Source: a virus
Direction: 5' to 3' (one strand)
Virus genome (UHGV): UHGV-0289467
DNA length: 46,550 nt
Shown here: positions 2,986-46,525 of the stretch, piece by piece
Position numbering within the stretch: the first letter of the stretch is position 1
Layout of the letters: each line of letters begins with the position of its first letter
Made by a program: the position numbers and the translations under genes
The notes under the pieces: model-generated
What the model was told of the DNA's origin: nothing
Seen by the model: the letters and a program-made list of their open reading frames with translations, nothing else
The model's database searches: none

Positions 2986-3167
2986 GACCTTTCTCCGCGC
3001 TTACTTTATGCCCGGATTATAACACACCATGAATATGCACCACGAAACGGACGCGAGAAGGTAAAGCTGAGATTCGGTAAAAGCGAAAAGAGTAGCAAAG
3101 AATGATATCAGTATGATTGGCATGGCTGCTACCTCCTGAGTGCAAGGTAACAGCCACGGAAGAGAAT

Positions 3168-3769: not shown

Positions 3770-4041
3770 TTCTCCTCCTCATCAAAATACTTAATCTCGC
3801 CATCAACCATGTTTTGCCGTGGAATATGCAAATCAGTGCCATTAACTGACAGCATGATGCTGTTATCCAGCTCTACGCACCCATCGGCGAAGAAAGTGCT
3901 TTTCTTTCCGTTGAGCCACTCAATTGTTACTCTGCATTTTCTTTGTTCCACTATCCACCCCATCTCTCTGCGATTATTGGCCGTGCGCTCACAGTTGGTG
4001 ACAAACAGCACGGTTCCTGATTTATGCTTTACCGCCCACAT
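3766..4041 (-). CDS. hypothetical early protein
   Basis: 91-aa ORF, overlap-coupled. Confidence 0.4.
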   Translation of the reverse strand: MWAVKHKSGTVLFVTNCERTANNRREMGWIVEQRKCRVTIEWLNGKKSTFFADGCVELDNSIMLSVNGTDLHIPRQNMVDGEIKYFDEEEK

Positions 4042-4517
4042 GACTGGCGCGCCCCGGCAAGCAGCTTTTCAAACATCATCCTGTCACGACTCATTCCAAA
4101 CGGGATGACTTCCTGCCAGTAATATTTCCATGCACCGCCGGGAAGCATTTCACGGTCAACCTGACCAATGCTTGCCAGGTAGCGCATGCGTGCCTTGAGG
4201 ATGGTGTAGTTGACGCCGACAGCCTCTGCTATCTGCTTGCTCTTGCGTCCCGGATTCGCCTCAAGATAGGTCTGAATTGCCAGGTCAAGCGCGGTATTGT
4301 CGGGATTGAGGAAATACTTAAAGCAGCGCCTGCCATAGCTGACGCTTTCCTCTTTAATAATAAATCCCATACCCTCCAGCTCAATCAGATAGCCGGTAAC
4401 GCTGGCTCGGTTTGTCATGCCGGTCTGCTTGCGTATCATGGCGTTGGTTGCTCCACCGCAGCGCTCTATCACCGTGAGTATTTGCGTTTTAAAGTCCATT
4501 TGCGCGCTCCATTGCAT
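4029..4517 (-). CDS. putative winged-helix DNA-binding protein
   Basis: 162 aa; central segment (…MIRKQTGMTNRASVTGYLIELEGMGFII…) resembles MarR/ArsR-type wHTH; start may be at internal Met. Confidence 0.35.
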   Translation of the reverse strand: MQWSAQMDFKTQILTVIERCGGATNAMIRKQTGMTNRASVTGYLIELEGMGFIIKEESVSYGRRCFKYFLNPDNTALDLAIQTYLEANPGRKSKQIAEAVGVNYTILKARMRYLASIGQVDREMLPGGAWKYYWQEVIPFGMSRDRMMFEKLLAGARQSCGR

Positions 4518-5730: not shown

Positions 5731-5770
5731 ATCACTCGCATTAAGATGTTATAATCTACAACACCTAGTA

Positions 5771-5796
5771 TTGACTAATTGACGTAGATTAGTCAA
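5771..5796. promoter_or_regulatory. operator-like palindrome TTGACTAAT-N8-ATTAGTCAA in divergent early promoter region
   Basis: perfect 9-bp inverted repeat (5771-5779 / 5788-5796) whose 8-bp spacer TGACGTAG is the core of the recurrent TTGACGTAGATT motif; sits between divergent operons 5730<- and ->5820. Confidence 0.5.
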
Positions 5797-7469: not shown

Positions 7470-7500
7470 ACAAAGCCCCTTTACGGGGCTTTTTTATTAC
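7470..7500. terminator. bidirectional rho-independent terminator
   Basis: AAAGCCCCtttaCGGGGCTTTTTTATT hairpin flanked by A/T runs; separates convergent early (+) and lysis (-) units. Confidence 0.7.
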
Positions 7501-8626: not shown

Positions 8627-8652
8627 TTTTTTACCTCCGGTGATGCAGATTA

Positions 8653-8705
8653 TTTTATCATAATCCTATTGACGTAGATTGAATCGTAGGCGATGATGTA
8701 GTTAC
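8653..8705 (+). promoter_or_regulatory. promoter module TTTTATCATAA-N5-TTGACGTAGATTGA
   Basis: conserved block shared with 43168-43196; TTGACG -35-like at 8669-8674; divergent region between lysis cassette and plus island. Confidence 0.5.
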
Positions 8706-8725: not shown

Positions 8726-9016
8726 ATGAAAAAATTTATCGTAGTGGCGGTATTCGCAATGGCTTCATTTGGCGCATCGGCTGGCGAACTTTGCGATGCA
8801 ATGGGCAAGCTCGGCCAGACAGCAGCAGAAGCGCGTGATGCGGGCGTACCGAAGCAGGTTGCGCTGGCGGTGTCGGTTAGCAGCAAGGCGAGCGCAGAGG
8901 CCAACGAAATCAACAAGGCAACCGTTGAGGCCGCATACCAGATGACAAATAAAACGCCGAAAGAAATGTTTGTCATTGCGCGTGATATCTGCATCTCAAC
9001 ATTCGGTAATAATTAA
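8726..9016 (+). CDS. small secreted (periplasmic) protein
   Basis: 96 aa; N-terminal signal peptide MKKFIVVAVFAMASFGASA|GE (signal peptidase I type), Ala/Lys-rich mature part. Confidence 0.5.
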   Translation: MKKFIVVAVFAMASFGASAGELCDAMGKLGQTAAEARDAGVPKQVALAVSVSSKASAEANEINKATVEAAYQMTNKTPKEMFVIARDICISTFGNN

Positions 9017-9143: not shown

Positions 9144-10094
9144 ATGAAGCTGATTGATATTTTGGTTGAAGAACTGCCGAAGCGTGATGGCTGGCCGGTG
9201 GGTGTTTGCGAAATCTCTACACATGCATCCGGACGAGTGTTCTTTGATGGTCGATTCGCGCCGCGGGGGTTTTCTTTACCTATGGCATCCGACGCATGGA
9301 ACAAATATAAACACCCGCGCAGTTACACAAATGCGGTCAAACGCGACCAGTACGAAGCCGCGCTGGCTGCGAGTAAGCGCCGCGATCATAAGTGGATTCC
9401 AAGCGAGGGAAGAACGCAATCTGGTTATCTTTGTAGTAAATGTGGTAACTATGACGGCCCTGGTTATGACTGGATTGATTGGGGTGGTGGCGAATGCCCA
9501 GTGCCGACAGGAACTCTGGTTGATGTAAAATGGCGAGATGGAAGAATTGACGATGGTATTCCAGCCAAAATAAGCCATGATCTGGACTCATCAAAGCGTA
9601 ACGCAATTAGCTGGCGACATCATGGAAATTCTCACGACATCATCTCCTACCGTCTGCACCAGCCTCAGGAAGCGGAACAAACCGAAGCGGATGACAAAGC
9701 CGACCTGAATGAGTGTATCGGCCAGGATGCTGCACCGGTTTGGAATGGCGAAGGCTTGCCGCCGGTTGGCGAAAAGGTTATTTTCTTTATCAATCCGCGT
9801 TTTGATTATACTACTCAAGGAATGCCTGCCGAAGGACGTGAGATTGAAGTGGTGGCACATAAAAAAACATCAGATGGCAATGATGTTGCCGTTTGCTATT
9901 GGGATGAGAATGGTGGAGGAAGAGCAGTATGCCTTGTCCCGGAGAGTTTGATGCCAGCAAAATCTGAAGACGATCGGAAGCGCGAAGAGGCTGTGAAGGC
10001 AATTACGCTAACAGGATGGTGTCAGGCTGCCGCTGAGGAAATTTACGACCTCGTTGCTGCTGGAAAAGTGCCGGGAATGAAGCTGGGGGATTAA
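9144..10094 (+). CDS. hypothetical protein (316 aa)
   Basis: long ORF with RBS; contains CSKCGN…GGGEC Cys cluster; no family recognised. Confidence 0.45.
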   Translation: MKLIDILVEELPKRDGWPVGVCEISTHASGRVFFDGRFAPRGFSLPMASDAWNKYKHPRSYTNAVKRDQYEAALAASKRRDHKWIPSEGRTQSGYLCSKCGNYDGPGYDWIDWGGGECPVPTGTLVDVKWRDGRIDDGIPAKISHDLDSSKRNAISWRHHGNSHDIISYRLHQPQEAEQTEADDKADLNECIGQDAAPVWNGEGLPPVGEKVIFFINPRFDYTTQGMPAEGREIEVVAHKKTSDGNDVAVCYWDENGGGRAVCLVPESLMPAKSEDDRKREEAVKAITLTGWCQAAAEEIYDLVAAGKVPGMKLGD

Positions 10095-10218: not shown

Positions 10219-10245
10219 GAGGCCGCCGTCAGGCGGCTTTCTTGT
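10219..10245. terminator. rho-independent terminator
   Basis: GGCCGCCgtcaGGCGGCTTTCTT hairpin. Confidence 0.6.
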
Positions 10246-12602: not shown

Positions 12603-12634
12603 ACCATAAAAAATCCCATCGCATGGATGGGATT
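12603..12634 (-). terminator. rho-independent terminator (minus strand)
   Basis: ATCCCATC-gcatgg-GATGGGAT hairpin followed on minus strand by TTTTTTAT. Confidence 0.55.
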
Positions 12635-12643
12635 ATAGCATGA

Positions 12644-13102: not shown

Positions 13103-13293
13103 TCAATCTCCTCGCCATCAACCCAGCGTTGCAGCACTTCGATAAGCTGTGCGGCCTGGTGTTTGTCTATGCCAATAAATGACTCAACACCGGAGCCATT
13201 CTCTTGATACAACTCCACGACAGGTGTTCCATCCTCAAGTTCTTGCGCAGTTACGTGCATGTCATATGCGTTTTCTGTTTCTTCAATAATCAT
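13099..13293 (-). CDS. hypothetical acidic protein
   Basis: 64 aa, coupled. Confidence 0.4.
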   Translation of the reverse strand: MIIEETENAYDMHVTAQELEDGTPVVELYQENGSGVESFIGIDKHQAAQLIEVLQRWVDGEEIE

Positions 13294-13529
13294 AAATCAC
13301 CACCCTCATCGTTATTTAACTCAACATTCCGAAAGAAATCGTTAATCGTCTTCATCCCACTGTAACCACGGCGCCGCTGCAGCTCACACAGCACCTCATC
13401 ATACATGCGCAGTAGGATGGCCTCATCCACATCGTACCTTTCGCACAGCGCCTCATCAGACACGCCAGCTCTTGCTAGTGAGTATATTTTCTCCTTCTGC
13501 TCCCACGAAAAAGATGAGTATGCCTTCAT
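13290..13529 (-). CDS. hypothetical protein
   Basis: 79 aa, coupled. Confidence 0.4.
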   Translation of the reverse strand: MKAYSSFSWEQKEKIYSLARAGVSDEALCERYDVDEAILLRMYDEVLCELQRRRGYSGMKTINDFFRNVELNNDEGGDL

Positions 13530-13562
13530 GATGCCCCGGTGATGTAGTTATGTCAATGCGCC

Positions 13563-13597
13563 TTGACGTAGATTCTAGCATGGCGTAGATTAAAATG
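13563..13597 (+). promoter_or_regulatory. sigma70-type promoter TTGACG-N17-TAGATT
   Basis: TTGACG 13563-13568, 17-bp spacer, TAGATT 13586-13591, then RBS/ATG of 13618 gene. Confidence 0.5.
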
Positions 13598-13617: not shown

Positions 13618-13908
13618 ATGAAATGTGTCATTTTTGAGCTTGATGGTGTGCTGCGCGATGCTGAAGGCAATGCTATTGCTGGCAACGTAGCGCTTGCTAA
13701 GTCGCTCTACTCTGCCGGTCATGATGTGCTTATCATGAGGGCAAAGCATGCGTATGAGTGGCTGCATGCTAACGATGTTTTCTATGATGACATCATGGCT
13801 TCGCACCAGCAGGTTTACGCTGACAGGGTGGCAATGGCGGTCGTTTCTGATGATGTGATTTATGCCGCCATGCGTAATGCGGGGATTCACTGCTGGCTTT
13901 ACAAATAA
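13618..13908 (+). CDS. hypothetical protein with HAD motif-I-like N-terminus
   Basis: 96 aa; VIFELDGVLRD resembles HAD hydrolase motif I (hhhhDxDGTL) but first Asp is Glu and protein is too short for a full HAD fold. Confidence 0.4.
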   Translation: MKCVIFELDGVLRDAEGNAIAGNVALAKSLYSAGHDVLIMRAKHAYEWLHANDVFYDDIMASHQQVYADRVAMAVVSDDVIYAAMRNAGIHCWLYK

Positions 13909-13921
13909 TTTATTATAAATG

Positions 13922-13956
13922 TTGACGTTGATTCATGGTTGATGTAGATTGTAGTC
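13922..13956 (+). promoter_or_regulatory. sigma70-type promoter TTGACG-N17-TAGATT
   Basis: TTGACG 13922-13927, 17-bp spacer, TAGATT 13945-13950. Confidence 0.5.
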
Positions 13957-13996: not shown

Positions 13997-14329
13997 ATGC
14001 AATATCAAGAACGTACTGCTGAATTACAAAACTTATATGCGGTTCGCGTAATAAATATGGTTTTAATGGGGATTGAGGTTAGTAAGTCGTCATACGTTGA
14101 TCGCTTTATTTACTCACTCTACAACGGCGTTAAATCTAATTGGGATGAAGATTGCACATGGACTGAGCACTTTGTTGAAAAACTTACCGAGGAGCGTGAG
14201 TCAATAAAAAATGGCTCTTATTGGAAGATGGGAGATTTTTTTAGATTAATTGCTGCTGAAGATAAGGAGTTCTGGGAGGCGATATGTGTCCCATTTAAAA
14301 CATGGAAAAGCATTCAGCTTTGCAATTGA
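13997..14329 (+). CDS. hypothetical protein
   Basis: 110 aa, RBS present, followed by terminator. Confidence 0.4.
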   Translation: MQYQERTAELQNLYAVRVINMVLMGIEVSKSSYVDRFIYSLYNGVKSNWDEDCTWTEHFVEKLTEERESIKNGSYWKMGDFFRLIAAEDKEFWEAICVPFKTWKSIQLCN

Positions 14330-14338
14330 TTACAGCTA

Positions 14339-14360
14339 GGCCCCGCAACGGGGCTTTTTC
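14339..14360. terminator. bidirectional rho-independent terminator
   Basis: GGCCCCGcaaCGGGGCTTTTTCTT. Confidence 0.7.
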
Positions 14361-16895
14361 TTATCTCCTGCTCCTTCTAATCCATCCAGAGCCTCGCTGT
14401 ACGATGTGATCGTTGCATGCATATCTGATTGCGTCAATGAAGTGGTTCCACGCATCCACAATATTTGTGAGCACGTTACCCGTCAGCTTGTCCACCTTGT
14501 AACTGTACATAGTGAACTCTTCCTGAGTCTGTGTGCAGCGGTCATGAATGATGATGCTGTCGCAACCCCTGAGCCAGGTTACACCCTCCTCCACGCTCCC
14601 GGGCCACTTATTGCATGGATGGATATCAAATCCTGCGCGTTTGATGTGACTGATTGTTTCTGGCCGAGAGCAGTCCCCATACCATCTTGCCTTCCTGGAG
14701 AGTGGGAATGATTGCTCCATCGCTGTAGGTGTGTCGGTAATCTCAAGGCCTACACGGCCGTATTCGCGCGCGACGTAAAGATTGCGTCGGTCATCAGGAA
14801 GTTTCTCAATGTAAACCTCAACCATCGCCGTTGCGTCCTGCGAGAATCCAAAGTCGATGCCAAAGTAAGGCCCATGCCATTCCGGCTTAACCTCGAAATC
14901 AGCAACGCGCCACTTACCGCCAAATACCTGCTCATCATTACGCTTATTAAAGCGCCCACCCCACACCCATTGATAGCGGTCGAAGTCGGTTTCTTTCATG
15001 CGCTGCATTTGGCTTGGGAGCGGAGTATCCCAGAACCACGGATTGTCTGAGTAATTACACTCGATAATCAGGTTTTCATCATCCTCATAGATGCCGCCAT
15101 TTTCGCGCAATTTATTATAAAAAGGCTCAACCCATATTTTCCACGTCGGGTCATGCTCTTTATTTGGGTTGAAAGTCACCCATATCTCTGACCCTTCAGC
15201 GCGGACTGTTGGGGTGAGGATTTCCCAGCTTGTCTGGCTGACGTTTTCCGCCTCCTCGACCCAAGCTACTGTAATGCCAGCGAAGCCTTTAACGGTCGTC
15301 TGGTTGCGATACAGCCCCTTAAATCTGAATTTTGCCTTCGTGCCTTTGTGGGTTATCTCATTATTGATGACGCGAAACTCTTTCGTTTCTCCCTTGCGAT
15401 CAATTTCGTCCTTCAGTTCCTGATATGAGCTATCTTCAATGGACTGCTGAATCTCACGAAAACAAGCTATCCTGTCAGGCTTAAAGCGTGCACGCTCCGT
15501 AAGTATTGTTGTTACTGTCCTTGTTTTTCCGCTGTTGTGTGTAACCGTGCCATCAGCAAGCAAGAAAAGATGATCGCCATCAAGAGTGAACCCAGCGTAT
15601 TCACCATGCCCGACATAAGACAATGACACCTCAGTCATCTTTCCACGGGTTGACTTGGTTTTCTCTGCTATCTTCCTTTTTACTCGGCATGGGATTGTAT
15701 GAAGGTCACCACTAACGAACACCTCCCATACGTCCTTTTCGTATATTCTTTTCTCACCTTTATATTCAAAGGTGATATCAGTCTTTTTGATTATGCTTGA
15801 CTTGAAGCCAAGCGATCTTGCCACATCCATCAAAGAGAAGGCCATTTCTTTATTTATTGATGTGAAAGAATAGCTTTTCTTTTTCTGGTCATAATGCGAA
15901 TCAGTATCCAATAGCCCAGCCAGAATCTGAAGTCTTACCTCTCTGCTGTTTTTGATATAGCAGTCAGGTATGTGTTTATTATTAATCACCCCAAGCTGCT
16001 GCATTTTAGTTAGTAACGGGTTGGTGTTCTTCCCCATGCCAGCAGCTCGACCATTAGTTATCGCATAGACAGGGCATCTATCATCGTCGCGAACCTTTAC
16101 CTGCATCCCGTATTGGCTTGCCACATTGTGAATGTAGTCAACTATCTCTGGATCAGGCGTGCACACTTCAACACCACGAGATGAACCATCACCTAACCAT
16201 AAACCAAGAAAGTACGGGTCAACTGGGACGCTTTGGTAATTAAAATCCCATCCTGTTCGCCACCCTTTAAAGACATGGCGGAACTTTTTGGAAGTTGCGC
16301 GCGACAAATATTCTGAAACACCAATATTCAGTATTTCAGGTTCATTCGGGTAATAACGATAAATTCTTTTACCATCCGGTGTTTTTGTCTCGTCACTGAT
16401 AGCAGATGGAATCTTTCGTAATGACAGTATGTGACTTGAGTTGACAGTGTAGTCATCAGCATATTTTTGATGAACCGTATACATGTCATCAAACCCCCGA
16501 CAGATGTTTAAAACATTTCGTGGTTTACTGTCTGGACCCATAACCTTATCGCCAACAACGATATCCTCTACGCGTTTTAGGCTACCATCAAACATCCTCA
16601 CCATCGTGCCGATGGCTAAGCATCCGCGCCCGCCAAACACAATCTTATTACGCTTGGGGTAAAGTAGCTTTTCCAGCTTTTCTGGTATCAGGTGATCAAC
16701 GCCAATATCAGAGTCGCTAACGTCATCAACTCCGCTTTGCGTCATTTTTAGTTTGCGAACAATCTGCTTATCTGTATTAACAACACCGAACACCGCAGAT
16801 TCAGGCGCATCAATCACGCCATCGCCAATAATCTCTTCGAGTTTTTCAATTGCTGGTGCTGAGAGTCTTTTGCGTGCCATATATAGATTCCTCAT
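14361..16895 (-). CDS. terminase large subunit, interrupted by an intein
   Basis: 844-aa ORF; N-extein ends …IVFGGRG, C-extein begins SGKTRTV… which rejoin to the Walker A box GGRGSGKT; C-terminal nuclease-like part; downstream of TerS. Confidence 0.9.
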   Translation of the reverse strand: MRNLYMARKRLSAPAIEKLEEIIGDGVIDAPESAVFGVVNTDKQIVRKLKMTQSGVDDVSDSDIGVDHLIPEKLEKLLYPKRNKIVFGGRGCLAIGTMVRMFDGSLKRVEDIVVGDKVMGPDSKPRNVLNICRGFDDMYTVHQKYADDYTVNSSHILSLRKIPSAISDETKTPDGKRIYRYYPNEPEILNIGVSEYLSRATSKKFRHVFKGWRTGWDFNYQSVPVDPYFLGLWLGDGSSRGVEVCTPDPEIVDYIHNVASQYGMQVKVRDDDRCPVYAITNGRAAGMGKNTNPLLTKMQQLGVINNKHIPDCYIKNSREVRLQILAGLLDTDSHYDQKKKSYSFTSINKEMAFSLMDVARSLGFKSSIIKKTDITFEYKGEKRIYEKDVWEVFVSGDLHTIPCRVKRKIAEKTKSTRGKMTEVSLSYVGHGEYAGFTLDGDHLFLLADGTVTHNSGKTRTVTTILTERARFKPDRIACFREIQQSIEDSSYQELKDEIDRKGETKEFRVINNEITHKGTKAKFRFKGLYRNQTTVKGFAGITVAWVEEAENVSQTSWEILTPTVRAEGSEIWVTFNPNKEHDPTWKIWVEPFYNKLRENGGIYEDDENLIIECNYSDNPWFWDTPLPSQMQRMKETDFDRYQWVWGGRFNKRNDEQVFGGKWRVADFEVKPEWHGPYFGIDFGFSQDATAMVEVYIEKLPDDRRNLYVAREYGRVGLEITDTPTAMEQSFPLSRKARWYGDCSRPETISHIKRAGFDIHPCNKWPGSVEEGVTWLRGCDSIIIHDRCTQTQEEFTMYSYKVDKLTGNVLTNIVDAWNHFIDAIRYACNDHIVQRGSGWIRRSRR
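15534..16622 (-). mobile_element. intein (363 aa) with LAGLIDADG homing endonuclease, inserted in the TerL P-loop
   Basis: starts with Cys (CLAIGTMV… block A), ends …LLADGTVTHN followed by Ser (+1); two LAGLIDADG motifs (FLGLWLGDGS and LAGLLDTDSH) in the middle. Confidence 0.85.
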
Positions 16896-17396: not shown

Positions 17397-17470
17397 AGAT
17401 AAAGCCTATCAATATTTCGCTATTTTTCCGTTATTCGATATTATATCAGATTCTACACCATGTCGCATGG

Positions 17471-19424: not shown

Positions 19425-19445
19425 CTCTTTGTTGTTGGTGTGGTA

Positions 19446-19474
19446 ACTATACGATGGCGATCAATCTACGTCAA
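19446..19474 (-). promoter_or_regulatory. sigma70-type promoter TTGACG(TAGATTGA)-N17-TATAGT on minus strand
   Basis: reverse complement of 19461-19473 is TGACGTAGATTGA; -10 TATAGT at rc of 19446-19451. Confidence 0.5.
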
Positions 19475-19479
19475 TATGA

Positions 19480-19860
19480 TGGTGAAAATAAATCAGCTTG
19501 GGGTAGTTTTTACCCCTGTGGGTAAGGTGTTGGGGCATGGTGTTGCCCCACACGCAAGCCTTGTCACTAAAGGGATTTAACATTTTTGGGGCACTGGGGC
19601 AATTTTGATACCCATCCCCTTGTATATATAAAAACGCCGCCAGTTTGTTAATTTATTGTTAAAATAAAATCTATAATATGAATAATAATATTACCCAGTT
19701 AACCCTACTACTATTATTATTATATATTACATATACTTAGATTAACGTTGCGTGGGGAAGGTGGCCTGCCCCACGGTTAACCCAGCTACCCCAGAAAAGA
19801 TGAACGGCAAGGCATTTACTGACGGGGATTTATGGGTTAATATGGTTTCTACCAACAAGA
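19480..19860. promoter_or_regulatory. AT-rich divergent intergenic region with GGGGCA/TGCCCC and GTTAACCC repeats and hairpin CGTGGGG-N12-CCCCACG
   Basis: 380-bp non-coding gap between divergent minus head/early and plus replication operons; AT-rich core (19610-19740) flanked by GC-rich short repeats. Confidence 0.4.
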
Positions 19861-19873
19861 TGGAGTGTATGTT

Positions 19874-20122
19874 ATGTCTAATCACGGCAGGCTTTTAAAG
19901 AAAAAATCACGGTTTCGTGGCAGACCCTCAACCACTGGCTTCAATGGCGTTGACTTCCATAAGCAATCTGGTTATTTCAGGGCGAGAATAGTTGTTAATC
20001 GCCTTCGGTATGAACTTGGCAAATTTGAAACAGCAGAAGAAGCGAACCTGGCTGTTCTGAAGGCAAAGCAATGGCTGTCAGAAAACCCTCACGAATTATT
20101 TGCAACCGAGTATGAGGTTTAA
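19874..20122 (+). CDS. stand-alone AP2-domain DNA-binding protein
   Basis: 83 aa; GFNGVDFHKQSGYFRARIVVNRLRYELGKFETAEEANLAV matches the AP2 domain found at the C-termini of the three HNH endonucleases here but lacks any HNH motif; GGAG RBS. Confidence 0.6.
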   Translation: MSNHGRLLKKKSRFRGRPSTTGFNGVDFHKQSGYFRARIVVNRLRYELGKFETAEEANLAVLKAKQWLSENPHELFATEYEV

Positions 20123-21907: not shown

Positions 21908-21940
21908 AAAAACCCTCCGGCAGGAGGGTTTATTTTTTTA
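21908..21940. terminator. bidirectional rho-independent terminator
   Basis: AAAACCCTCCggcaGGAGGGTTTATTTTTTT. Confidence 0.7.
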
Positions 21941-25391: not shown

Positions 25392-25794
25392 AAGCGGCAT
25401 ATGGGTATTTGATAGCGGTTATCGTGGGGAGTGTCCGAAAGAAGAGACAGACCAGATGGGTTACGGCACATGGATGCAGCACCGCTTCCCTGATGTTCTG
25501 TGGTTTCATGTGCCTAACGAGACTGGAACAAAGAGTGGTCCGCAATTCATCGAAAAACGCCGAAAAATGGGCGTCAGGAGCGGTGTAAGCGACAATGTGA
25601 TACTAACTCACGGCATTAATCATAAATGCGGCCTGATTGAGTTGAAGAGGCGTGACAAGACAAAATCAAAAGTATCGCCATCGCAGATTGAGGTTCTTGA
25701 GTGCGCCATTGCAGAGGGTCACTTTGGCGCTATTGCTTATGGTCTTGAGGAGATAAAAAGAGCGACGTTATTCTATTTTGGGCTTGATGAATGA
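25378..25794 (+). CDS. VRR-NUC domain nuclease (PD-(D/E)XK)
   Basis: 138 aa from AGGAG-supported ATG; FHVPNETGTKSGPQFIEKRRKMGVRSGVSDNVIL…GLIELKRRDK matches VRR-NUC signature (hhxxxNE…G…G…SD…ELK). Confidence 0.7.
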   Translation: MKQLESGIWVFDSGYRGECPKEETDQMGYGTWMQHRFPDVLWFHVPNETGTKSGPQFIEKRRKMGVRSGVSDNVILTHGINHKCGLIELKRRDKTKSKVSPSQIEVLECAIAEGHFGAIAYGLEEIKRATLFYFGLDE

Positions 25795-25816
25795 CGTGGT
25801 TTGATGTAGATTCATC
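25786..25816. promoter_or_regulatory. inverted repeat GATGAAT-N17-ATTCATC enclosing TTGATGTAGATT promoter-motif variant
   Basis: 7-bp arms at 25786-25792 and 25810-25816; motif TTGATGTAGATT at 25801-25812; upstream of exonuclease gene. Confidence 0.4.
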
Positions 25817-28510: not shown

Positions 28511-28535
28511 AAAGGGGCGCAAGCCCCTTAAACTA
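28511..28535. terminator. bidirectional rho-independent terminator
   Basis: AAAAGGGGCgcaaGCCCCTT hairpin between convergent units. Confidence 0.65.
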
Positions 28536-30693: not shown

Positions 30694-30722
30694 TCTCCGT
30701 AATCATTAATTACCCTATTGTA

Positions 30723-33212
30723 TCATGCAACAGGGTTGGTGTAGGTGTACATGGCGTCATTGTACTCAGTTACGGTGAGAGACACTGTGCCATCTGTACC
30801 TGGAGTTTTTTGGCTAACTGTCCATAACGTTGAATCAAGCTCAACCTCTGTGGAGATGGCATATCTTGATTCTGACTGAACATTAACACCATCAAAAATG
30901 TTTAACTCGAAATCAGATGGCAATGCGCACTCGAATGTATTCAGTCCGGTAACGGTACAAGCCAGGCGTTCTGACACATTCCCATTGGCGCCGGTGATGA
31001 CCACAAACAGACCGCTTTCTGCCGTGAGCTGTTCACTGGTGGTAAATACGTTTCCAGACCTTGAGCGGATAACGCCAGTCTGCTGCACTGAATCATAAAT
31101 GTCGACAACGGAAATCATATCGCCGACGTTCACCCACTCGCCATCAGCAAGCGCCTTTATCTCCATGCTGCGACGTGAGTACATCAGGCGATTGCATTCA
31201 AGCATGGCCCGGTCTGTTGCCTGATACAGGTTCCGAACATATAACATGTCGAATTTTTTCGGCTTAGTCGGCTCTCCCGGTTCGATACCAGATGCCCCAA
31301 CTTTATAATAAACGTAAGCCTGTTTGTTGGTGTTTGGGTCGCGGTACTGAACGCTTACGCCATCATATGAACCAGGCAAAGTCATGTCATAAGACATTTT
31401 ATAGCCATCAGCCTGTGTGTTTCTGGTATTAAACACAGTTTCAGGGGTTGATTTTTGCTCATCTCTTGAGAAAGATAGGACGCCATCCTCCCAAAATACA
31501 GTTACGCGAGCTGCATCACAGATGGTCTGAATTCGCTCGCCGATCGATTTATCCTCATCGTCAAATGTGTAATCAAAATACCCAAGGCGCTCATCAGGCA
31601 GCGCATCAGCTATTTCATAGAGCCTTCCAACGTCAATGGTGCTTTCAGGCTGACCAGCAGTAATAAGCCAGTTATGCAGCACTGAATCTGCAAAACTTCT
31701 TGATGGAGTTAACGTATAGTCGACTGTCCCGGTTGTTCTGTTATATCCGATAGTCCAGCGGGTGATTAGCGCGTTATACTTTCTTTCTCTGCTACCGGTG
31801 GCGTTTTCTGTCGCTCTAACAACTACCTTAACAATTGTGTCATCATGATAGGATACGTTTTCCCTCTTTATTATTGTATGGACCTCGTCAACCTGAATGA
31901 TTGAGTGGTCATTGCTGTTGTTGGTTCTTGAAAACTGTATTGCATATCTCCCGAATCCAGCTGATGGGGTTAATTTTATTGTGTAAAAGTAATTGTCTGT
32001 CCTTGGTGCTGCGCCAGTTTCAAAAAAATGCTCCTCCTTTGTTCCGGGTATTTGTTCGTTATTATCATCGACTTTCCACCACTCAATCTTCACATTTGCG
32101 TAGTCTTTATCTCCAAGCTGTGCTATGAAATGCACCCAAAGCTCGCCGCCCTCTATTGGAGAGAAATATGGGCCAGATACCAGCGGCTGATTGTCAGTTA
32201 ATGAAAATAACGTATTATTTATTGTCACTCCATCAAGGGATGAGATTGGCGCTCCGCCATAATTTATTGAGTTTATTGTAAATTCGTACCAGTAATCCAC
32301 AGGAGGGATTAATCCATCATTTTTTTCTTCTGCGAATGTCAGGTTTCCAGATAATGTAACATCCGCTGTTGTGCTACCCCCAGGAGTTGGGTAGGTTATG
32401 TTTAGTTCAAAAACAATAGCATGCGGCATGGTAAGGCCTACAAAATAGTCGAAATCACTATTTTTTGGTATTTTTATGAGCAGCTCGCCGGATGCAAAGT
32501 CGGAATCACTTACCGTTGTCGTGGTGGCTGTCTCAATTTGCACTGGAGGAGGATCAACACTCAACTCATTTGGTCCGTATAATTCCTGACCATCAACATC
32601 ATCAAAAGCATAAGGCTCATATATTACAGGTATAATTTCTCCAGGGTTATATATTGTATATGATGCACCAGCAAGCGAGCCAAGGTTTGACTCTGAATAC
32701 CTGACTGATGATACGGTGTACTTCCCAAGACCGAAGTTCATTATTTCTGTAACATATTTTATGTTATTTATGTATTCAAAAAGTGACTCTTGAATGAGGT
32801 CTGGATAACTCCTGACTTGCCCAAAATTATCAGGTCTGGCCTCACCATTTCTTGCCGTGTTTGTCTGCGCTTTGAGTGAGTTGTTTGGCGATGACTTTGA
32901 TGTTTCTGAGTTGATTGACGGCGTTGATGCTTTTGGCAACAGAAAAGAAAGCACCTTCGTTACAGGCTTGAGTATCGTGCTGATAAGGTCGCCAATGGCG
33001 CCGCGAGGCTGGCAGTAAATGTTAACAATATCGTTTTGCTTTAACGATATCGACAATTCATCATCAGGGCCAAAAATGCGGCCATTCAGTGCAATCCTGA
33101 TATCAGATGGAAGGCTGGAATTCTCCAGCCATCTCCACAGATTAGTGCCAGCAGGAACATTACCCGTCTCTTTTGGAACTCCTGGCATCTTCTGAATGTG
33201 AATAACCGGCAT
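30723..33212 (-). CDS. tail tip / central fibre protein (lambda J-like), N-terminus possibly gpI-like
   Basis: 829 aa, last large gene of tail-tip block after K-like gene. Confidence 0.6.
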
Positions 33213-38846: not shown

Positions 38847-38883
38847 GTCTAAATCCTGTTTTCACAATGACGTAATTATACCA

Positions 38884-38925
38884 TTGACAGGGGGCGCAAG
38901 ACTGACGTAGATTGAAAGCATAAGG
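38884..38925 (+). promoter_or_regulatory. promoter TTGACA-N18-TAGATT overlapping the 13-mer TGACGTAGATTGA
   Basis: TTGACA 38884-38889; 13-mer at 38903-38915; drives plus island inside tail module. Confidence 0.45.
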
Positions 38926-39905: not shown

Positions 39906-40074
39906 TAAAAATTATGCTGATACTATTTCAAAGTACATAAGAAGCAATCAACAATACAACGGCCCGGTCTTTGTTGATATTGAAAAACTTAGATTGATTC
40001 ACATGGATTTAGCGGTATCGCTCGCTAATTTGTCATTGTGGAGAATCCGAGTGTCTTCACTGCTGAGAAAATAA
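39889..40074 (+). CDS. hypothetical small protein (~60 aa)
   Basis: ATGATGATG start cluster after GAGGAG RBS; ends at terminator. Confidence 0.35.
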   Translation: MMMVLDKNYADTISKYIRSNQQYNGPVFVDIEKLRLIHMDLAVSLANLSLWRIRVSSLLRK

Positions 40075-40098
40075 ACCCCCTTTCGGGGGTTTTCTTTA
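40074..40098. terminator. bidirectional rho-independent terminator
   Basis: AAACCCCCtttcGGGGGTTTTCTTTATT. Confidence 0.7.
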
Positions 40099-40851: not shown

Positions 40852-40896
40852 GTTTAGAATCCTCTGTGTTTAGCTAAACAATCGCATTATATCATG

Positions 40897-40925
40897 TTGA
40901 CAGGTTTTGATTGGTGGTGTAGATT
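40897..40925 (+). promoter_or_regulatory. sigma70-type promoter TTGACA-N17-TAGATT upstream of tRNA genes
   Basis: TTGACA 40897-40902, TAGATT 40920-40925, about 17 nt before tRNA 5' end. Confidence 0.55.
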
Positions 40926-40942
40926 CGAATCAACAACGCAAC

Positions 40943-41020
40943 GCACCATTAGCTCAGCAGGATAGTAGCAACGGACTTCTAATCCGTAGGTCACTGGTTC
41001 GAATCCAGTATGGTGCACCA
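40943..41020 (+). tRNA. tRNA-Arg (anticodon UCU)
   Basis: GCACCAT/ATGGTGC acceptor stem, GGTTCGAATCC T-loop, anticodon loop CTTCTAA, encoded CCA; closely parallels E. coli argU architecture. Confidence 0.85.
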
Positions 41021-41023
41021 AAT

Positions 41024-41100
41024 TCCCGTTTAGCTTAACTGGTTAAAGCACCCGACTCATAATCGGATGATTACAGGTTCGAATCCTGTCGCGGGAACCA
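41024..41100 (+). tRNA. tRNA with CAU anticodon (Met elongator or Ile2/lysidine type)
   Basis: T-loop GGTTCGAATCC, D-stem GCTT/AAGC, anticodon loop CTCATAA, encoded CCA; anticodon arm CGACTCATAATCG identical to that of E. coli tRNA-Ile2(LAU). Confidence 0.7.
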
Positions 41101-43021: not shown

Positions 43022-43167
43022 TAATTATTCTCCGAATGATGAACTTCCAGCATCTGTACACCTGAACCAGCGAAAACGCTATGACGATAACGCCGATTGC
43101 TATATCCAATTTCGCCGCCTTACGTTTTTCAGGACGGAACAGCGCGGGGTGAGTGTTGTTGGTTTAA

Positions 43168-43211
43168 TTTTATCATAAAGTGTTGACGTAGATTGAGGGT
43201 GTCGCTATAGT
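43168..43211 (+). promoter_or_regulatory. promoter module TTTTATCATAA-N4-TTGACGTAGATTGA-N9-TATAGT
   Basis: TTGACG 43183-43188, 17-bp spacer, TATAGT 43206-43211; second copy TGACGTAGAAAC at 43214-43225. Confidence 0.55.
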
Positions 43212-43251
43212 GATGACGTAGAAACAACAATAAATGTTAGAGGTGATGAAT

Positions 43252-43542: not shown

Positions 43543-43655
43543 TTCGCCACGAAATCCGCAAAGAAGATCTGAAGGCGTGGGATAAGTTCAAAATCAAGCT
43601 GGCATTAATAGTTATCGGATTCGCCATTGCCAGCGCAATCTGTTTATCAAAGTGA
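43539..43655 (+). CDS. small single-TM membrane protein (38 aa)
   Basis: MIRHEIRKEDLKAWDKFKIKLALIVIGFAIASAICLSK; ATGA coupling. Confidence 0.3.
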   Translation: MIRHEIRKEDLKAWDKFKIKLALIVIGFAIASAICLSK

Positions 43656-43662
43656 GGAAAAA

Positions 43663-44481
43663 ATGACATCTCTCGGAAAAATTTACTCAGACAAAGAAAC
43701 TCGCGGCGGAATCGTGGTCAACAAAGGTTATCAGGTTCCCGTCGACCAGCTTTATCTTGAACCGGGATACAACATCCGCGAAGCCGATGAGCAGCACGTT
43801 GAATACTTTGCGCAGTGCTGGGAATCAGGCCAGCCAATCCCGGCGTTAACTGTTATTCCTGATGCTGACGGAAAGCGCATCAAGATTCTTGACGGTCAGC
43901 ATCGTTACCTTGGCGCACTGCGTGCCATTGATCGCGGTGTACCAATTGCGCGCATTGAGTGCAAAGACTTCACCGGCGATGAAGCGGACAAAATCGCCTT
44001 CATGGTGTCATCCAGTCAAGGAAAGCAGCTTGACCCGCTTGAGCGTGCAAAGGCTTATGTGCGCCTGAAAGGGTTCGGATGGACGAATGAAGAAATCGCC
44101 AAGAAGGTTGGTCGCTCAGTTTCTGATGTGCAGATGCACCTGTCACTTGGTGATGTACCTGATTCCATCAAGCAACGCATCAATGCAGGCCAAATCAGCT
44201 ATGCCAACGCCGTTGCAGTGGCGCGTGAGCATGGCGATGATGCCGTTAACGTTATTGATGCTGCCGTTGAGGAAGCAAAAGCACAGGGCAAAGATAAGGT
44301 GACGGCCAAAACGCTCAAGGCCAAAAAAGTTAAGCCGATTGACCGCCTGATTCAGTTGCTGAAAGAAGCAGATCATATGGTGGTTGCTGAGGGTCATGTG
44401 GCACAGGAGACAGAAGAATTTTTGCGCCTTCCTTCCGCTGAGTTGAGTGAAGTTCTGGCTATTCTGGAGAAGCTGCGATGA
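43663..44481 (+). CDS. ParB N-terminal-domain (ParB/Srx-like) nuclease-like protein
   Basis: 272 aa from GAGGAA-supported ATG; …VPVDQLYLEPGYNIREAD…ALTVIPDADGKRIKILDGQHRYLGAL… matches the ParB/sulfiredoxin fold signature (DGxHR). Confidence 0.65.
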   Translation: MTSLGKIYSDKETRGGIVVNKGYQVPVDQLYLEPGYNIREADEQHVEYFAQCWESGQPIPALTVIPDADGKRIKILDGQHRYLGALRAIDRGVPIARIECKDFTGDEADKIAFMVSSSQGKQLDPLERAKAYVRLKGFGWTNEEIAKKVGRSVSDVQMHLSLGDVPDSIKQRINAGQISYANAVAVAREHGDDAVNVIDAAVEEAKAQGKDKVTAKTLKAKKVKPIDRLIQLLKEADHMVVAEGHVAQETEEFLRLPSAELSEVLAILEKLR

Positions 44482-45442: not shown

Positions 45443-45470
45443 CAAAGCCCCTTTCGGGGCTTTTCTTTTA
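45443..45470. terminator. bidirectional rho-independent terminator
   Basis: AAAGCCCCtttcGGGGCTTTTCTTTT. Confidence 0.7.
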
Positions 45471-46298: not shown

Positions 46299-46332
46299 CA
46301 ATAAAAAACCCGCTTGTTTGCGGGTTTATTTT
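46299..46332. terminator. rho-independent terminator
   Basis: AAAAAACCCGCttgttGCGGGTTTATTTT. Confidence 0.6.
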
Positions 46333-46525
46333 ACTTGGTTTTCTTCGCCTTTGGCTGCGATTCTTGCGGAGTTGCAACTTCCAGAATTTTCTCACTAACC
46401 GGGCGAAGCTTTGACTCAATGTGCGGAGTGGATTCGTCAATCACGTCGCCAATGGCAAGCTCGCGCAGACGACCGCCTTTATCCTTGACGAAGATTCCGC
46501 TGGCGATTACTTCATATTTAGCCAT
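46331..46525 (-). CDS. hypothetical small protein
   Basis: 64 aa with Lys-rich C-terminus, followed by terminator. Confidence 0.35.
   Translation of the reverse strand: MAKYEVIASGIFVKDKGGRLRELAIGDVIDESTPHIESKLRPVSEKILEVATPQESQPKAKKTK

Follow-up and report, generated by a model that had tools for sequence, protein, structure and literature searches.

The C1 operators of phages P1 and P7 are asymmetric 17-mers dispersed over the genome, and in phage L5 the orientation of the sites is tied to the direction of transcription. The operators and 'stoperators' of the L5/L1 repressor (gp71/CI) are said to have been described by Brown et al. in 1997, and T4 reportedly has an early promoter consensus of its own as well as promoter-early stem-loop (PeSL) cassettes, in work attributed to Wilkens and Rueger and to Arbiol et al. 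in 2010. The L5/L1 repressor binds about 30 dispersed asymmetric sites of 13 bp (GGTGGMTGTCAAG), one of which overlaps the early promoter Pleft, and P1, P7, Bxb1 and phi105 have been named as users of multiple asymmetric operators (PMC1934351). Here we deal with another asymmetric word, the 12-mer TTGAYGTAGATT, that is TTGA(C/T)GTAGATT, often extended to TTGAYGTAGATT(G/C)A, which recurs at the promoters of UHGV-0289467, a complete, circularly permuted genome of a Roufvirus-like Klebsiella siphophage. The window analysed was this whole 46,550-nt sequence, and all coordinates refer to it. Its nucleotide identity to KpV2811, BUCT610 and pYD38-A (Roufvirus) is 90-93%, and weaker nucleotide matches were found to Vi II-E1 (Macdonaldcampvirus), VSt472 and LPST10 (Skatevirus), Bas77 and Bas81, which are Salmonella or Escherichia coli phages. 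As judged by comparing these sequences, the 12-mer is lineage-specific, oriented and embedded in promoters, and it is under purifying selection as a unit.

Dinucleotide-preserving shuffles (100 for the 13-mer) served as the background for enrichment. The exact 13-mer TGACGTAGATTGA was present at the four positions given by the original prediction, 8670-8682, 38903-38915 and 43184-43196 (+) and 19461-19473 (-), against none in 100 shuffles (0 expected). With up to 2 mismatches the count rose to 11 sites, versus 0.97 expected, and the same word topped the over-representation among all 11-13-mers of the window. The core TTGAYGTAGATT was found 7 times exactly and 10 times with at most 1 mismatch (0.03 and 0.2 in the shuffles). 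Although intergenic DNA amounts to 8.2% of the window, 9 of these 10 core sites were intergenic (P = 1.5e-9), with 29-64 nt between each of the nine and the following downstream gene of its strand, and the sole genic copy, at 46485, is on the non-coding strand. Read from the sequence, the motif is non-palindromic, with 6 of 14 positions self-complementary. The intergenic, promoter-upstream location proposed in the original prediction was therefore upheld, although further copies had been missed, at 13580, 13922, 40914 (GGTGGTGTAGATT, in the tRNA promoter) and 5753-5764 (-), together with half-copies at 8694 and 43214. The variant copies it listed are real, but two of them start at 5780 and 13564, one base off the 5781 and 13565 that it gave, and the sequence at 13563-13574 is an exact TTGACGTAGATT (TTGACG) and not the TTGATG form, which stands as TTGATGTAGATT at 13939 and 25801. 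Its description of the motif as a -35 fused to TAGATT was borne out, the 12-mer joining a -35-like TTGAYG directly to a -10-like TAGATT, and so was the reuse of TAGATT as a -10, 17-18 bp downstream of a -35, at 13563, 13922, 38884 and 40897. Beyond what it had proposed, the 12-mer proved to be family-wide (at least 4 genera), to be used in several registers, and to have mosaic junctions at its 3' edge.

A comparison of motif enrichment with shuffles across the phage and its relatives had been suggested as a check. Eight complete genomes (Roufvirus, Skatevirus, Macdonaldcampvirus and Bas81) were searched with at most 1 mismatch, and all eight were enriched, with 9-14 copies per genome versus 0.2-0.7 expected; TGATGTAGA is among the commonest 9-mers in VSt472 and Bas81. 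The more distant metagenomic contigs L197 and L199, whose ParB-like protein is 67% identical to that of the window, retain the motif as TTGACGTAGATA or GTGACGTAGATT, and a scan of IMG/VR for the exact 14-mer returned mostly family members and random single matches. The unrelated siphophage Jersey, annotated as a Salmonella phage, had zero copies, indicating that the motif is a lineage trait and not a general promoter property of these hosts; a general host promoter feature was ruled out on this ground. Chance recurrence or a compositional artefact, for which only the shortness of the motif speaks, was refuted by the shuffles, which gave not even one exact 13-mer, by the enrichment throughout the family, by the intergenic bias and by the retention of the motif at orthologous positions, and its probability is practically nil.

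The copies take part in predicted promoters in several registers. As sigma-70 promoters we counted a -35-like hexamer, a 16-18 bp spacer and a -10 whose second base is A and whose sixth is T; by this measure 8669, 13563, 13922, 19474(-), 38884, 40897 and 43183 scored 9-10 of 12, and the top consensus promoter matches in the window are motif sites. At 8669, 19474(-) and 43183 the motif is the -35, and a -10 (GATGAT, TATAGT and TATAGT, respectively) lies exactly 17 bp downstream (register a). At 25801, at 38902 and in the tRNA promoter, 40897-40925, it is the -10, preceded at 17-18 bp by TTGACA, TTGACG or TTGATG (register b), and in the 17-bp tandems 13563/13580 and 13922/13939 copy 1 provides the -35 and copy 2 the -10 (register c). 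The motif at 5779 is inside the spacer, between TTGACT and an AATAAT-like -10 (register d), and this TTGACT-N18-AATAAT arrangement of the 5780 region is conserved in the Salmonella and E. coli relatives. Finally, at 8694 and 43214 a second copy follows the first at 24-31 bp and covers the -10 or +1 (register e); taken together, second copies lay 17, 24 or 30 bp downstream, again over the -10 or +1. After collapsing near-identical contexts, the family held 45 independent sites, of which 24 had a canonical partner (at least 4/6 matches at 16-18 bp): 11 belonged to class a (-35) and 13 to class b (-10), leaving 21 without a canonical partner. Two other ways of reading the word were rejected. As an extended -10, TGAYG-TAGATT would have its TG at -17/-16, 2 bp out of register, and C/T at position -14, and as a leftward -35 its reverse complement (AATCTA or TCAATC) matches at just 1-2 of 6 positions.

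In the family as a whole, the motif half for which sigma-70 has no use varied in 10/48 columns, compared with 58/88 in the adjacent spacer, taken as the 11 nt adjoining that half in genomes whose coding sequences are ~75-80% identical where aligned. The difference held separately for class a (6/24 versus 31/44 spacer columns, P = 4e-4) and class b (4/24 versus 27/44, P = 7e-4). This half has no partner hexamer of its own, the class-b upstream -35 scoring 1-3 of 6 and the class-a downstream -10 scoring 0-2, which is background; an overlapping promoter using it was ruled out because such partners were not found. That an unneeded half without a partner hexamer is conserved suggests that there is more here than a plain promoter. 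A G that departs from the consensus is kept in every -10 half (TAG..), whereas TATAAT or TAAAAT serves in the late promoters of the genome. Alignments of single promoters gave the same picture: TGTTGACGTRGATT, TATAGT and the leader GRCGTAGAAACAACAATAAATG are conserved ahead of the ParB cluster but the intervening 11 nt are not, GAYGTRGNTTGATGTAGATTC is conserved in the exonuclease VIII promoter, and AGTATTGACTAAnTGAYGTAGATTnGTCAA is conserved at the 5780 region in 7/7 genomes compared. Conservation thus goes beyond the needs of RNA polymerase and overlaps the -35, the spacer, the -10 or the +1, as would be expected of an operator.

The motif also has a constant place in the genome plan. Leftward genes are structural, lysis and some small genes, broken up by rightward cassettes whose cargo consists of small genes, recombination and replication genes, and two tRNAs. 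A motif copy heads every rightward cassette and also the leftward small-gene cluster running from 19424 to 16980, and a bidirectional terminator closes most of the motif-headed cassettes (7472, 10219, 14338, 21910, 40073 and 45444). In these units a repeated promoter opens the 5' side and a terminator closes the 3' side, the cargo varies between relatives, and the junction falls at the promoter. The break in homology with close relatives comes 0 nt after the motif at 40925 (in the comparison with three relatives), 2 nt after it at 38915 (with pYD38-A and BUCT610) and 7 nt after the reverse-strand copy (5746). Beyond 40925 the window has tRNA-Arg and tRNA-Met, whereas KpV2811, BUCT610 and pYD38-A have a different sequence annotated as a protein gene. 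Cargo genes likewise differ from those of relatives after 38915 and after the 43183 promoter, and the 13922 promoter and its gene are either both there or both missing, so that cargo differs at P38903, P40897, P43184 and P13922. With junctions at the motif edge and swapped cargo, the promoter word marks the joints of mosaic modules. The phage encodes a recombination set (exonuclease VIII / Erf / SSB / RusA), and recombination between copies could help to keep them identical. Strong GC-rich hairpins with T-runs on both strands, that is, bidirectional terminators, were observed at every convergent gene junction, with hairpins at 7472-7492, 10219-10240, 14338-14356, 21910-21931, 28512-28529, 40073-40092, 45444-45463 and 46306-46327.

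A second class of promoters was recognised upstream of the leftward structural, lysis and packaging operons, which carry an extended -10, TGnTAnAAT, and no recognisable -35. These elements are all on the - strand, at 3016-3024, 8652-8660, 12632-12640, 17440-17448, 30717-30725, 38875-38883, 40886-40894 and 43167-43175; 11 of 22 extended -10 matches were intergenic (P = 3e-7), and equivalents are retained in relatives at the two sites examined. By these predicted promoters, there are two promoter dialects in the genome, dividing by gene class. The two meet in four back-to-back modules, 8652-8682, 38875-38915, 40886-40925 and 43167-43196, in which the extended -10 is 0-9 bp from the rightward -35. 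The divergent-promoter cassette of the original prediction is well founded in this respect: its TTTTATCATAA block occupies 8653-8663 and 43168-43178, 5 and 4 nt ahead of TTGACG, and the back-to-back geometry is kept in distant relatives with other sequence, namely TGCTAAAAT or TGATAGAAT, 8-9 bp, then TTGACG. The block had been taken for a -10 on the opposite strand, which is right as far as it goes; more exactly, the leftward element is the extended -10 TGATAAAAT at 8652-8660 and 43167-43175. From the known polymerase footprint, we infer that both promoters of one module cannot hold RNA polymerase at once, so silencing the rightward promoter would free the leftward one.

At the first of these modules, TTGACGTAGATTGA (8669-8682, +) is the -35 of a rightward promoter for genes 8726-9016 and 9144-10094, with its -10, GATGAT, at 8692-8697 and a half-copy, TGATGTAGTT, downstream at 8694-8703 (+); TTGACG(T/C)AGATTGA of this promoter is conserved in Vi II-E1, VSt472, Bas81 and LPST10. 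Eight bp from the motif, TGATAAAAT at 8652-8660 (-), which reverse-complements part of the TTTTATCATAA block, is a -35-less extended -10 facing the leftward lysis operon (8626 to 7481), and its equivalent in relatives is TGATAGAAT. The module at 43167-43196 is built alike. There, TTGACGTAGATTGA (43183-43196) and TATAGT (43206-43211) form the promoter, 43183-43223 (+), of the cluster with the ParB/KorB-like gene 43627-44481, and a second copy, TGACGTAGAA (43214-43223, +), surrounds its +1; Vi II-E1, VSt472, Bas81 and LPST10 all keep the three blocks and the leader, but not the 11-nt spacer. On the other strand, TGATAAAAT at 43167-43175, 7 bp from the motif, precedes the head-tail connector operon (43021 to 41101), and relatives have TGCTAAAAT as its counterpart. 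In the remaining two modules the motif gives the -10. TTGACA (38884-38889), N18 and CTGACGTAGATTGA (38902-38915), with TAGATT as the -10, make up the promoter at 38884-38915 (+), back-to-back with the extended -10 TGGTATAAT of the tail operon (38883-38875, -). TTGACA, N17 and TAGATT, following GGTGGTG, make up that of tRNA-Arg(TCT) (40943-41020) and tRNA-Met(CAT) (41024-41100) at 40897-40925 (+), back-to-back with the extended -10 TGATATAAT of the major tail gene (40894-40886, -).

Among the other sites, TTGACGTAGATT at 5779-5790 (+) lies in a spacer common to two opposite-strand promoters that overlap completely, one with TTGACT at 5771-5776 (+), the other with TTGACT at 5796-5791 (-) and the -10 AATACT at 5772-5767. 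The motif is here in the middle of a palindrome, TTGACTAA (5771-5778) N10 TTAGTCAA (5789-5796), of which the family keeps at least TTGAC-N16-GTCAA. A motif-like GTGTTGTAGATT at 5753-5764 (-) stands ahead of the HNH / Lar / winged helix-turn-helix (wHTH) gene cluster (5730 to 3168) and overlaps a + strand extended -10, TGTTATAAT (5747-5755); Bas81 and LPST10 have a full TTGACGTAGATT at the equivalent position. The tandem of TTGACGTAGATT (13563-13574) and ATGGCGTAGATT (13580-13591), with its 17-bp period, is the + strand promoter of gene 13618-13908, with the -35 from copy 1 and the -10 TAGATT from copy 2; near it are a half-copy TGATGTAGTT (13540-13549) and, for gene 13529-13290, the extended -10 TGCTAGAAT (13580-13572, -). 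A second tandem of the same period, TTGACGTTGATT (13922-13933) and TTGATGTAGATT (13939-13950), is the + strand promoter of gene 13997-14329 and is also found in Vi II-E1, VSt472, Bas81 and LPST10. TTGACGTAGATTGA at 19461-19474 (-) is the -35, and TATAGT at 19451-19446 the -10, of the leftward small-gene cluster. The promoter of the exonuclease VIII / Erf / SSB operon (25784-25812, +) has the layout TTGATG-N17-TAGATT, with the -35 at 25784-25789, the -10 supplied by TTGATGTAGATT at 25801-25812 and a degenerate copy, TGACGTGGTT (25792-25801, +), overlapping the latter 10 bp upstream. It is conserved in 8/8 genomes, and that of VSt472 has a head-to-tail pair of full copies with a spacing of 10 bp (TGACGTAGAT-TGATGTAGATT), which suggests that the unit is possibly a 10-mer, TTGAYGTAGA (TTGAYGTAGA-TTGA). 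If so, the exact 13-mer may correspond to one 10-mer unit plus the start of the next, and its identity from site to site may be partly due to cassette recombination together with this 10-bp head-to-tail unit.

Two proteins conserved in all genomes compared are candidate readers of the motif. One (4029-4517, -; 156-162 amino acids) has two winged-helix domains in one chain. It belongs to phrog_1687, its Pfam matches (HTH_24, MarR, IclR) are all below cut-off, its AlphaFold2 model (pLDDT 76) has two wHTH units, and the proteins matching its fold are of generic MarR, PadR and tandem winged-helix kinds (TM ~0.4); no PDB sequence matches were obtained, and its database homologues are close ones only. 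A DNA binder, and nothing more than that, is a plausible description of this modelled product. Most of its homologues have 156 amino acids, starting at an internal Met (window 4499), so the annotated 162-residue start is probably 6 codons too long, and in LPST10 just the second winged-helix half is annotated. The other candidate (43627-44481, +) is a ParB/Spo0J/KorB-family protein, transcribed from a predicted motif promoter, with Pfam HTH_ParB and KorB domains and with Spo0J, ParB, Noc and KorB (8qa8, 1r71) as relatives in the PDB; it is 80-82% identical across the family and its helix-turn-helix (HTH) is invariant. Homologues of 40-44% identity (L203-L207) come without the motif and those of 67% (L197, L199) with it, a co-occurrence that follows the phage family and tells neither for nor against the protein as reader. 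The motif is not the 13-16 bp palindrome that a ParB/KorB operator would be, and palindromic repeats occur elsewhere, at 19751-19775.

These repeats lie in a 440-bp gene-free gap (19425-19864) between the divergent early and replication clusters, which has an AT-rich core (19620-19740), tandem GGGTAAGGTGTTG/GGGCATGGTGTTG repeats (19520-19545) and G-rich hairpins such as CGTGGGGAAGG/CCTGCCCCACG (19751-19775); similar GTGGGGCA...TGCCCCAC repeats are annotated in Vi II-E1. The gap is a candidate replication origin and/or target of the ParB-like protein, and its G-rich palindromic repeats appear to suit the ParB/KorB-like protein better than the motif does. The gene next to the putative origin (19865-20122, +) encodes an 85-residue product with a weak AP2-type DNA-binding match (E = 1e-4, below cut-off) and is absent from KpV2811 and VSt472.

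The explanation that we favour, with a confidence somewhat short of even, is that sigma-70 early/middle promoters carry an asymmetric operator for a probably phage-encoded protein. The 12-mer is a cis-element in host sigma-70-type promoters of the non-structural units (host-takeover and small genes, recombination/replication genes, tRNAs), and the protein would bind it as a monomer or in head-to-tail arrays. The protein, for which the tandem winged-helix product of 4029-4517 and the ParB/KorB-like product of 43627-44481 are the candidates, would shut down some ten scattered promoters in concert, or control them jointly in another way, and occupancy of the motif could free the adjoining extended -10 late promoters, which lie 7-9 bp from several of these promoters, from occlusion by RNA polymerase. 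The binding site superimposed on early promoters that the original prediction had suggested agrees with the excess conservation, the regulator being hypothetical and 'early' being read from gene content alone. Several observations weigh against such an operator. Every copy is co-directional with transcription, which fits a core promoter element at least as well, and position 5 is C in 11/11 class-a but T in 10/13 class-b copies (P = 1.5e-4), so that it tracks promoter use and sigma-70 function shapes the motif sequence. The orthologous sites of the conservation test were anchored on the motif, which brings some ascertainment bias. As for the readers, the 4029-4517 protein has a family-wide identity of just 36-39% and lacks conservation in recognition helix 1, whereas the motif is invariant; the ParB family normally binds palindromes, which the motif is not; and no sigma-, MotA-, AsiA-, Cro- or CI-like protein was found with Pfam and PHROGs in the ~45 open reading frames (ORFs) scanned. 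Moreover, two copies of the 12-mer stand in an E. coli island that is unrelated to the phage and has none of its proteins, which hints that the 12-mer works without a phage factor, or else that the island copies are a coincidence. A fuller version of the operator reading, in which a single reader (the wHTH protein, the ParB/KorB-like protein or an unannotated small ORF) acting on head-to-tail 10-bp units silences about ten early/middle promoters and hands the modules over to late promoters as one temporal switch, the motif being also a recombination joint, is unlikely.

The copies could instead be strong host promoters in the version inherited by this lineage, kept uniform by descent and by cassette recombination or gene conversion, with no dedicated binder, each copy being able to act as the -35 for a downstream start and as the -10 for an upstream or overlapping start in tandem or overlapping promoters. 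The canonical partners at 17-18 bp of 24/45 sites, the dependence of position 5 on hexamer use, the shared direction of copies and genes, and the fact that the best consensus promoter matches are motif sites all argue for this, as do the junctions 0, 2 and 7 nt from the motif 3' edge (40925, 38915, 5746), the encoded exonuclease VIII / Erf / SSB / RusA set and the E. coli island, one copy of which has a TTGACG-N17-TAGACT layout; an extended sigma-70 consensus peculiar to a phage has a precedent in the early promoters of T4. Such promoters would not need the partnerless half, however, which is conserved across ~25% sequence divergence while the neighbouring spacer is not, nor the non-consensus G, which is kept everywhere though TATAAT is used elsewhere in the same genomes. 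Copies in the spacer and at the +1 do not fit either, and 12-14 bp of homology is short for homogenisation across genera, so that we take this explanation to be possible, if on the unlikely side. The 21/45 partnerless sites, which still lie at promoter distance from genes, would be accounted for if TGAYGTAGATT were read at the -10 by host polymerase with a phage-encoded specificity factor, either a small sigma-like protein or a partner in sigma appropriation, after the model of the T4 gp55 late promoters or the MotA/AsiA middle promoters. Each copy would then mark a start ~7 nt after TAGATT, and the sigma-70-like partners would give extra early starts; the strict co-directionality, the lineage restriction of the motif and the presence of TTGATGTAGATA without a -35 facing the lysis genes in VSt472, Bas81 and LPST10 are consistent with this. 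Yet the exact 17-bp pairing with consensus hexamers would be a needless coincidence, TG falls at -17/-16 and not at the -15/-14 of an extended -10, and the 43214 copy would start transcription inside or next to a ribosome-binding region. Sigma-, gp55- and MotA/AsiA-like proteins were not detected with Pfam and PHROGs in the ORFs scanned, a negative that is weak evidence since many small conserved ORFs remain uncharacterised; altogether we consider a specificity factor improbable. A site for a host protein common to Klebsiella, Salmonella and E. coli, coupling early transcription to host physiology, would explain the motif in phages annotated with three enterobacterial host genera and the inverted pair in the E. 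coli island, but Salmonella phage Jersey lacks the motif, enterobacterial global regulators seldom have an asymmetric 12-mer as their site, and to our knowledge the motif matches no consensus of CRP, FNR, IHF, Fis, DnaA, LexA, MetJ, NarL, PhoB or IscR, which makes a host protein very improbable.

The E. coli island mentioned above is the thrW island, seen in the EC12 chromosome beside tRNA-Thr/proA (L127, 7061-7091; also L006, L008 and L064), which is present in ~650 of 5426 complete genomes. An inverted pair, AATCTACATCAA-ATATTGG-TTGACGTAGATT, lies there downstream of a serine recombinase gene, at a distance of ~220 bp, its right copy being the one with the TTGACG-N17-TAGACT layout. The pair may be a site for a recombinase or a regulator, or may have arisen by coincidence (rough P ~0.03). 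A comparison of the island with the phage family gave no shared protein and hence no guilt-by-association clue, and the 79-residue phage protein of 13290-13529, considered as a resolvase-type HTH protein, was discarded for lack of significant similarity to the island recombinase or to HTH_7 (HTH_Tnp_1, E = 0.13).

Some other features of these genomes were also recorded. The large terminase (14361-16895, -) has 844 residues, versus ~474 in BUCT610, VSt472 and Vi II-E1, and contains an intein, with a Hint domain (residues 92-178) and a LAGLIDADG homing endonuclease (309-373) ahead of the Terminase_3 domain. A word of 13-16 nt, GAGGTGAAGTGATG, recurs in four copies at gene junctions, 12887(-) and 26810, 27013 and 44641 (+), and looks like a Shine-Dalgarno sequence with a start codon that overlaps the preceding stop, which would make these putative translational coupling sites. 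The 'Vibrio' phage pYD38-A and the 'Aeromonas' phage pIS4-A have ~93% nucleotide identity to Klebsiella phages and the same promoters, so their recorded hosts look doubtful.

Roufvirus, Skatevirus and Macdonaldcampvirus phages and the BASEL phages Bas77 and Bas81 are commonly isolated for Klebsiella, Salmonella and E. coli therapy, and almost nothing is known about the timing of their gene expression. The motif at essentially every non-structural promoter, together with the extended -10 at the structural operons, provides a testable map of their transcription programme; the motif 14-mer would be a specific bait for a regulator, and the motif promoters could serve as portable cassettes for phage engineering. 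If a reader exists, the dispersed asymmetric operator design of L5 and P1 would extend to virulent enterobacterial phages, and regulation would be linked to the mosaic exchange of gene cassettes; should the single-switch version be true, an L5-repressor-like regulon would have been reused as an early-to-late switch in a virulent phage. Even without a reader protein the motif is unusual, as a promoter word that is usable in two registers.

Of the systems described, L5/L1 offers the closest likeness: an asymmetric site of ~13 bp with one two-state middle position, two dominant exact variants and one copy over an early promoter. The L5 site also carries a -35 hexamer, TTGACA, in its reverse complement (CTTGACAKCCACC), to be compared with TTGACG-TAGATTGA here, and these genomes share with L5 the many non-palindromic sites of about this length oriented with transcription (9-14 per genome, co-directional). 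The differences are nevertheless considerable. L5 is temperate and its repressor is known, whereas no repressor, integrase or immunity function was recognisable here in annotations or domain scans; L5 sites lie mostly within or between the genes of operons and stop elongation, whereas good copies occur here only at promoters, half of them supplying the -10, and neither elongation-blocking sites inside units nor a gp71-like repressor of a temperate phage was found. The sites have no sequence similarity, and no homologous protein was identified. P1 and P7 have monomer-type asymmetric operators over the -35 or -10 of many separate promoters in one regulon, a layout that the motif resembles; it differs in sequence and length, P1 is a temperate plasmid prophage with an immunity circuit, and a C1 homologue was not detected here. 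The RK2 protein KorB controls many dispersed promoters via a repeated operator, and this phage encodes a ParB/KorB-family protein; KorB operators are however 13-bp palindromes, and the palindromic G-rich repeats at 19500-19775 are the more natural target here.

Among phage switches, p4 of phi29 acts at the divergent A2c/A2b and A3 promoters through inverted repeats upstream of promoters. The likeness is hypothetical: early promoters stand back-to-back with a -35-less late promoter, so that one protein could switch both, but only 4 of ~9 late promoters adjoin the motif here. T4 middle promoters combine a MotA box, (a/t)(a/t)TGCTT(t/c)A, at -30 with a sigma-70 -10, and class-b sites resemble them in having a conserved element spanning -35 to -24 paired with a sigma-70-type -10. 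The MotA box is absent here, though, the -35 is intact, and the motif occurs also at the -10 and in spacers; scans of Pfam and PHROGs returned no MotA/AsiA homologues, so these are not MotA-dependent middle promoters. T4 early promoters and PeSL cassettes are similar in that the consensus is longer than the sigma-70 hexamers and promoter cassettes bound variable modules at recombination junctions (here 38915 and 40925), but the extra positions of T4 are in one fixed register, whereas the 12-mer is used in several, and the terminators are here at the far ends of the cassettes. A search of the literature for the motif, for Roufvirus or Jerseyvirinae/Guernseyvirinae promoters and for transcription-start mapping in the group found nothing relevant. 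Phage-specific promoter consensus sequences and dispersed asymmetric operators are thus already known in kind; a fused -35/-10 word that works in multiple registers, is family-wide in apparently virulent enterobacterial phages and coincides with mosaic joints appears to be undescribed.

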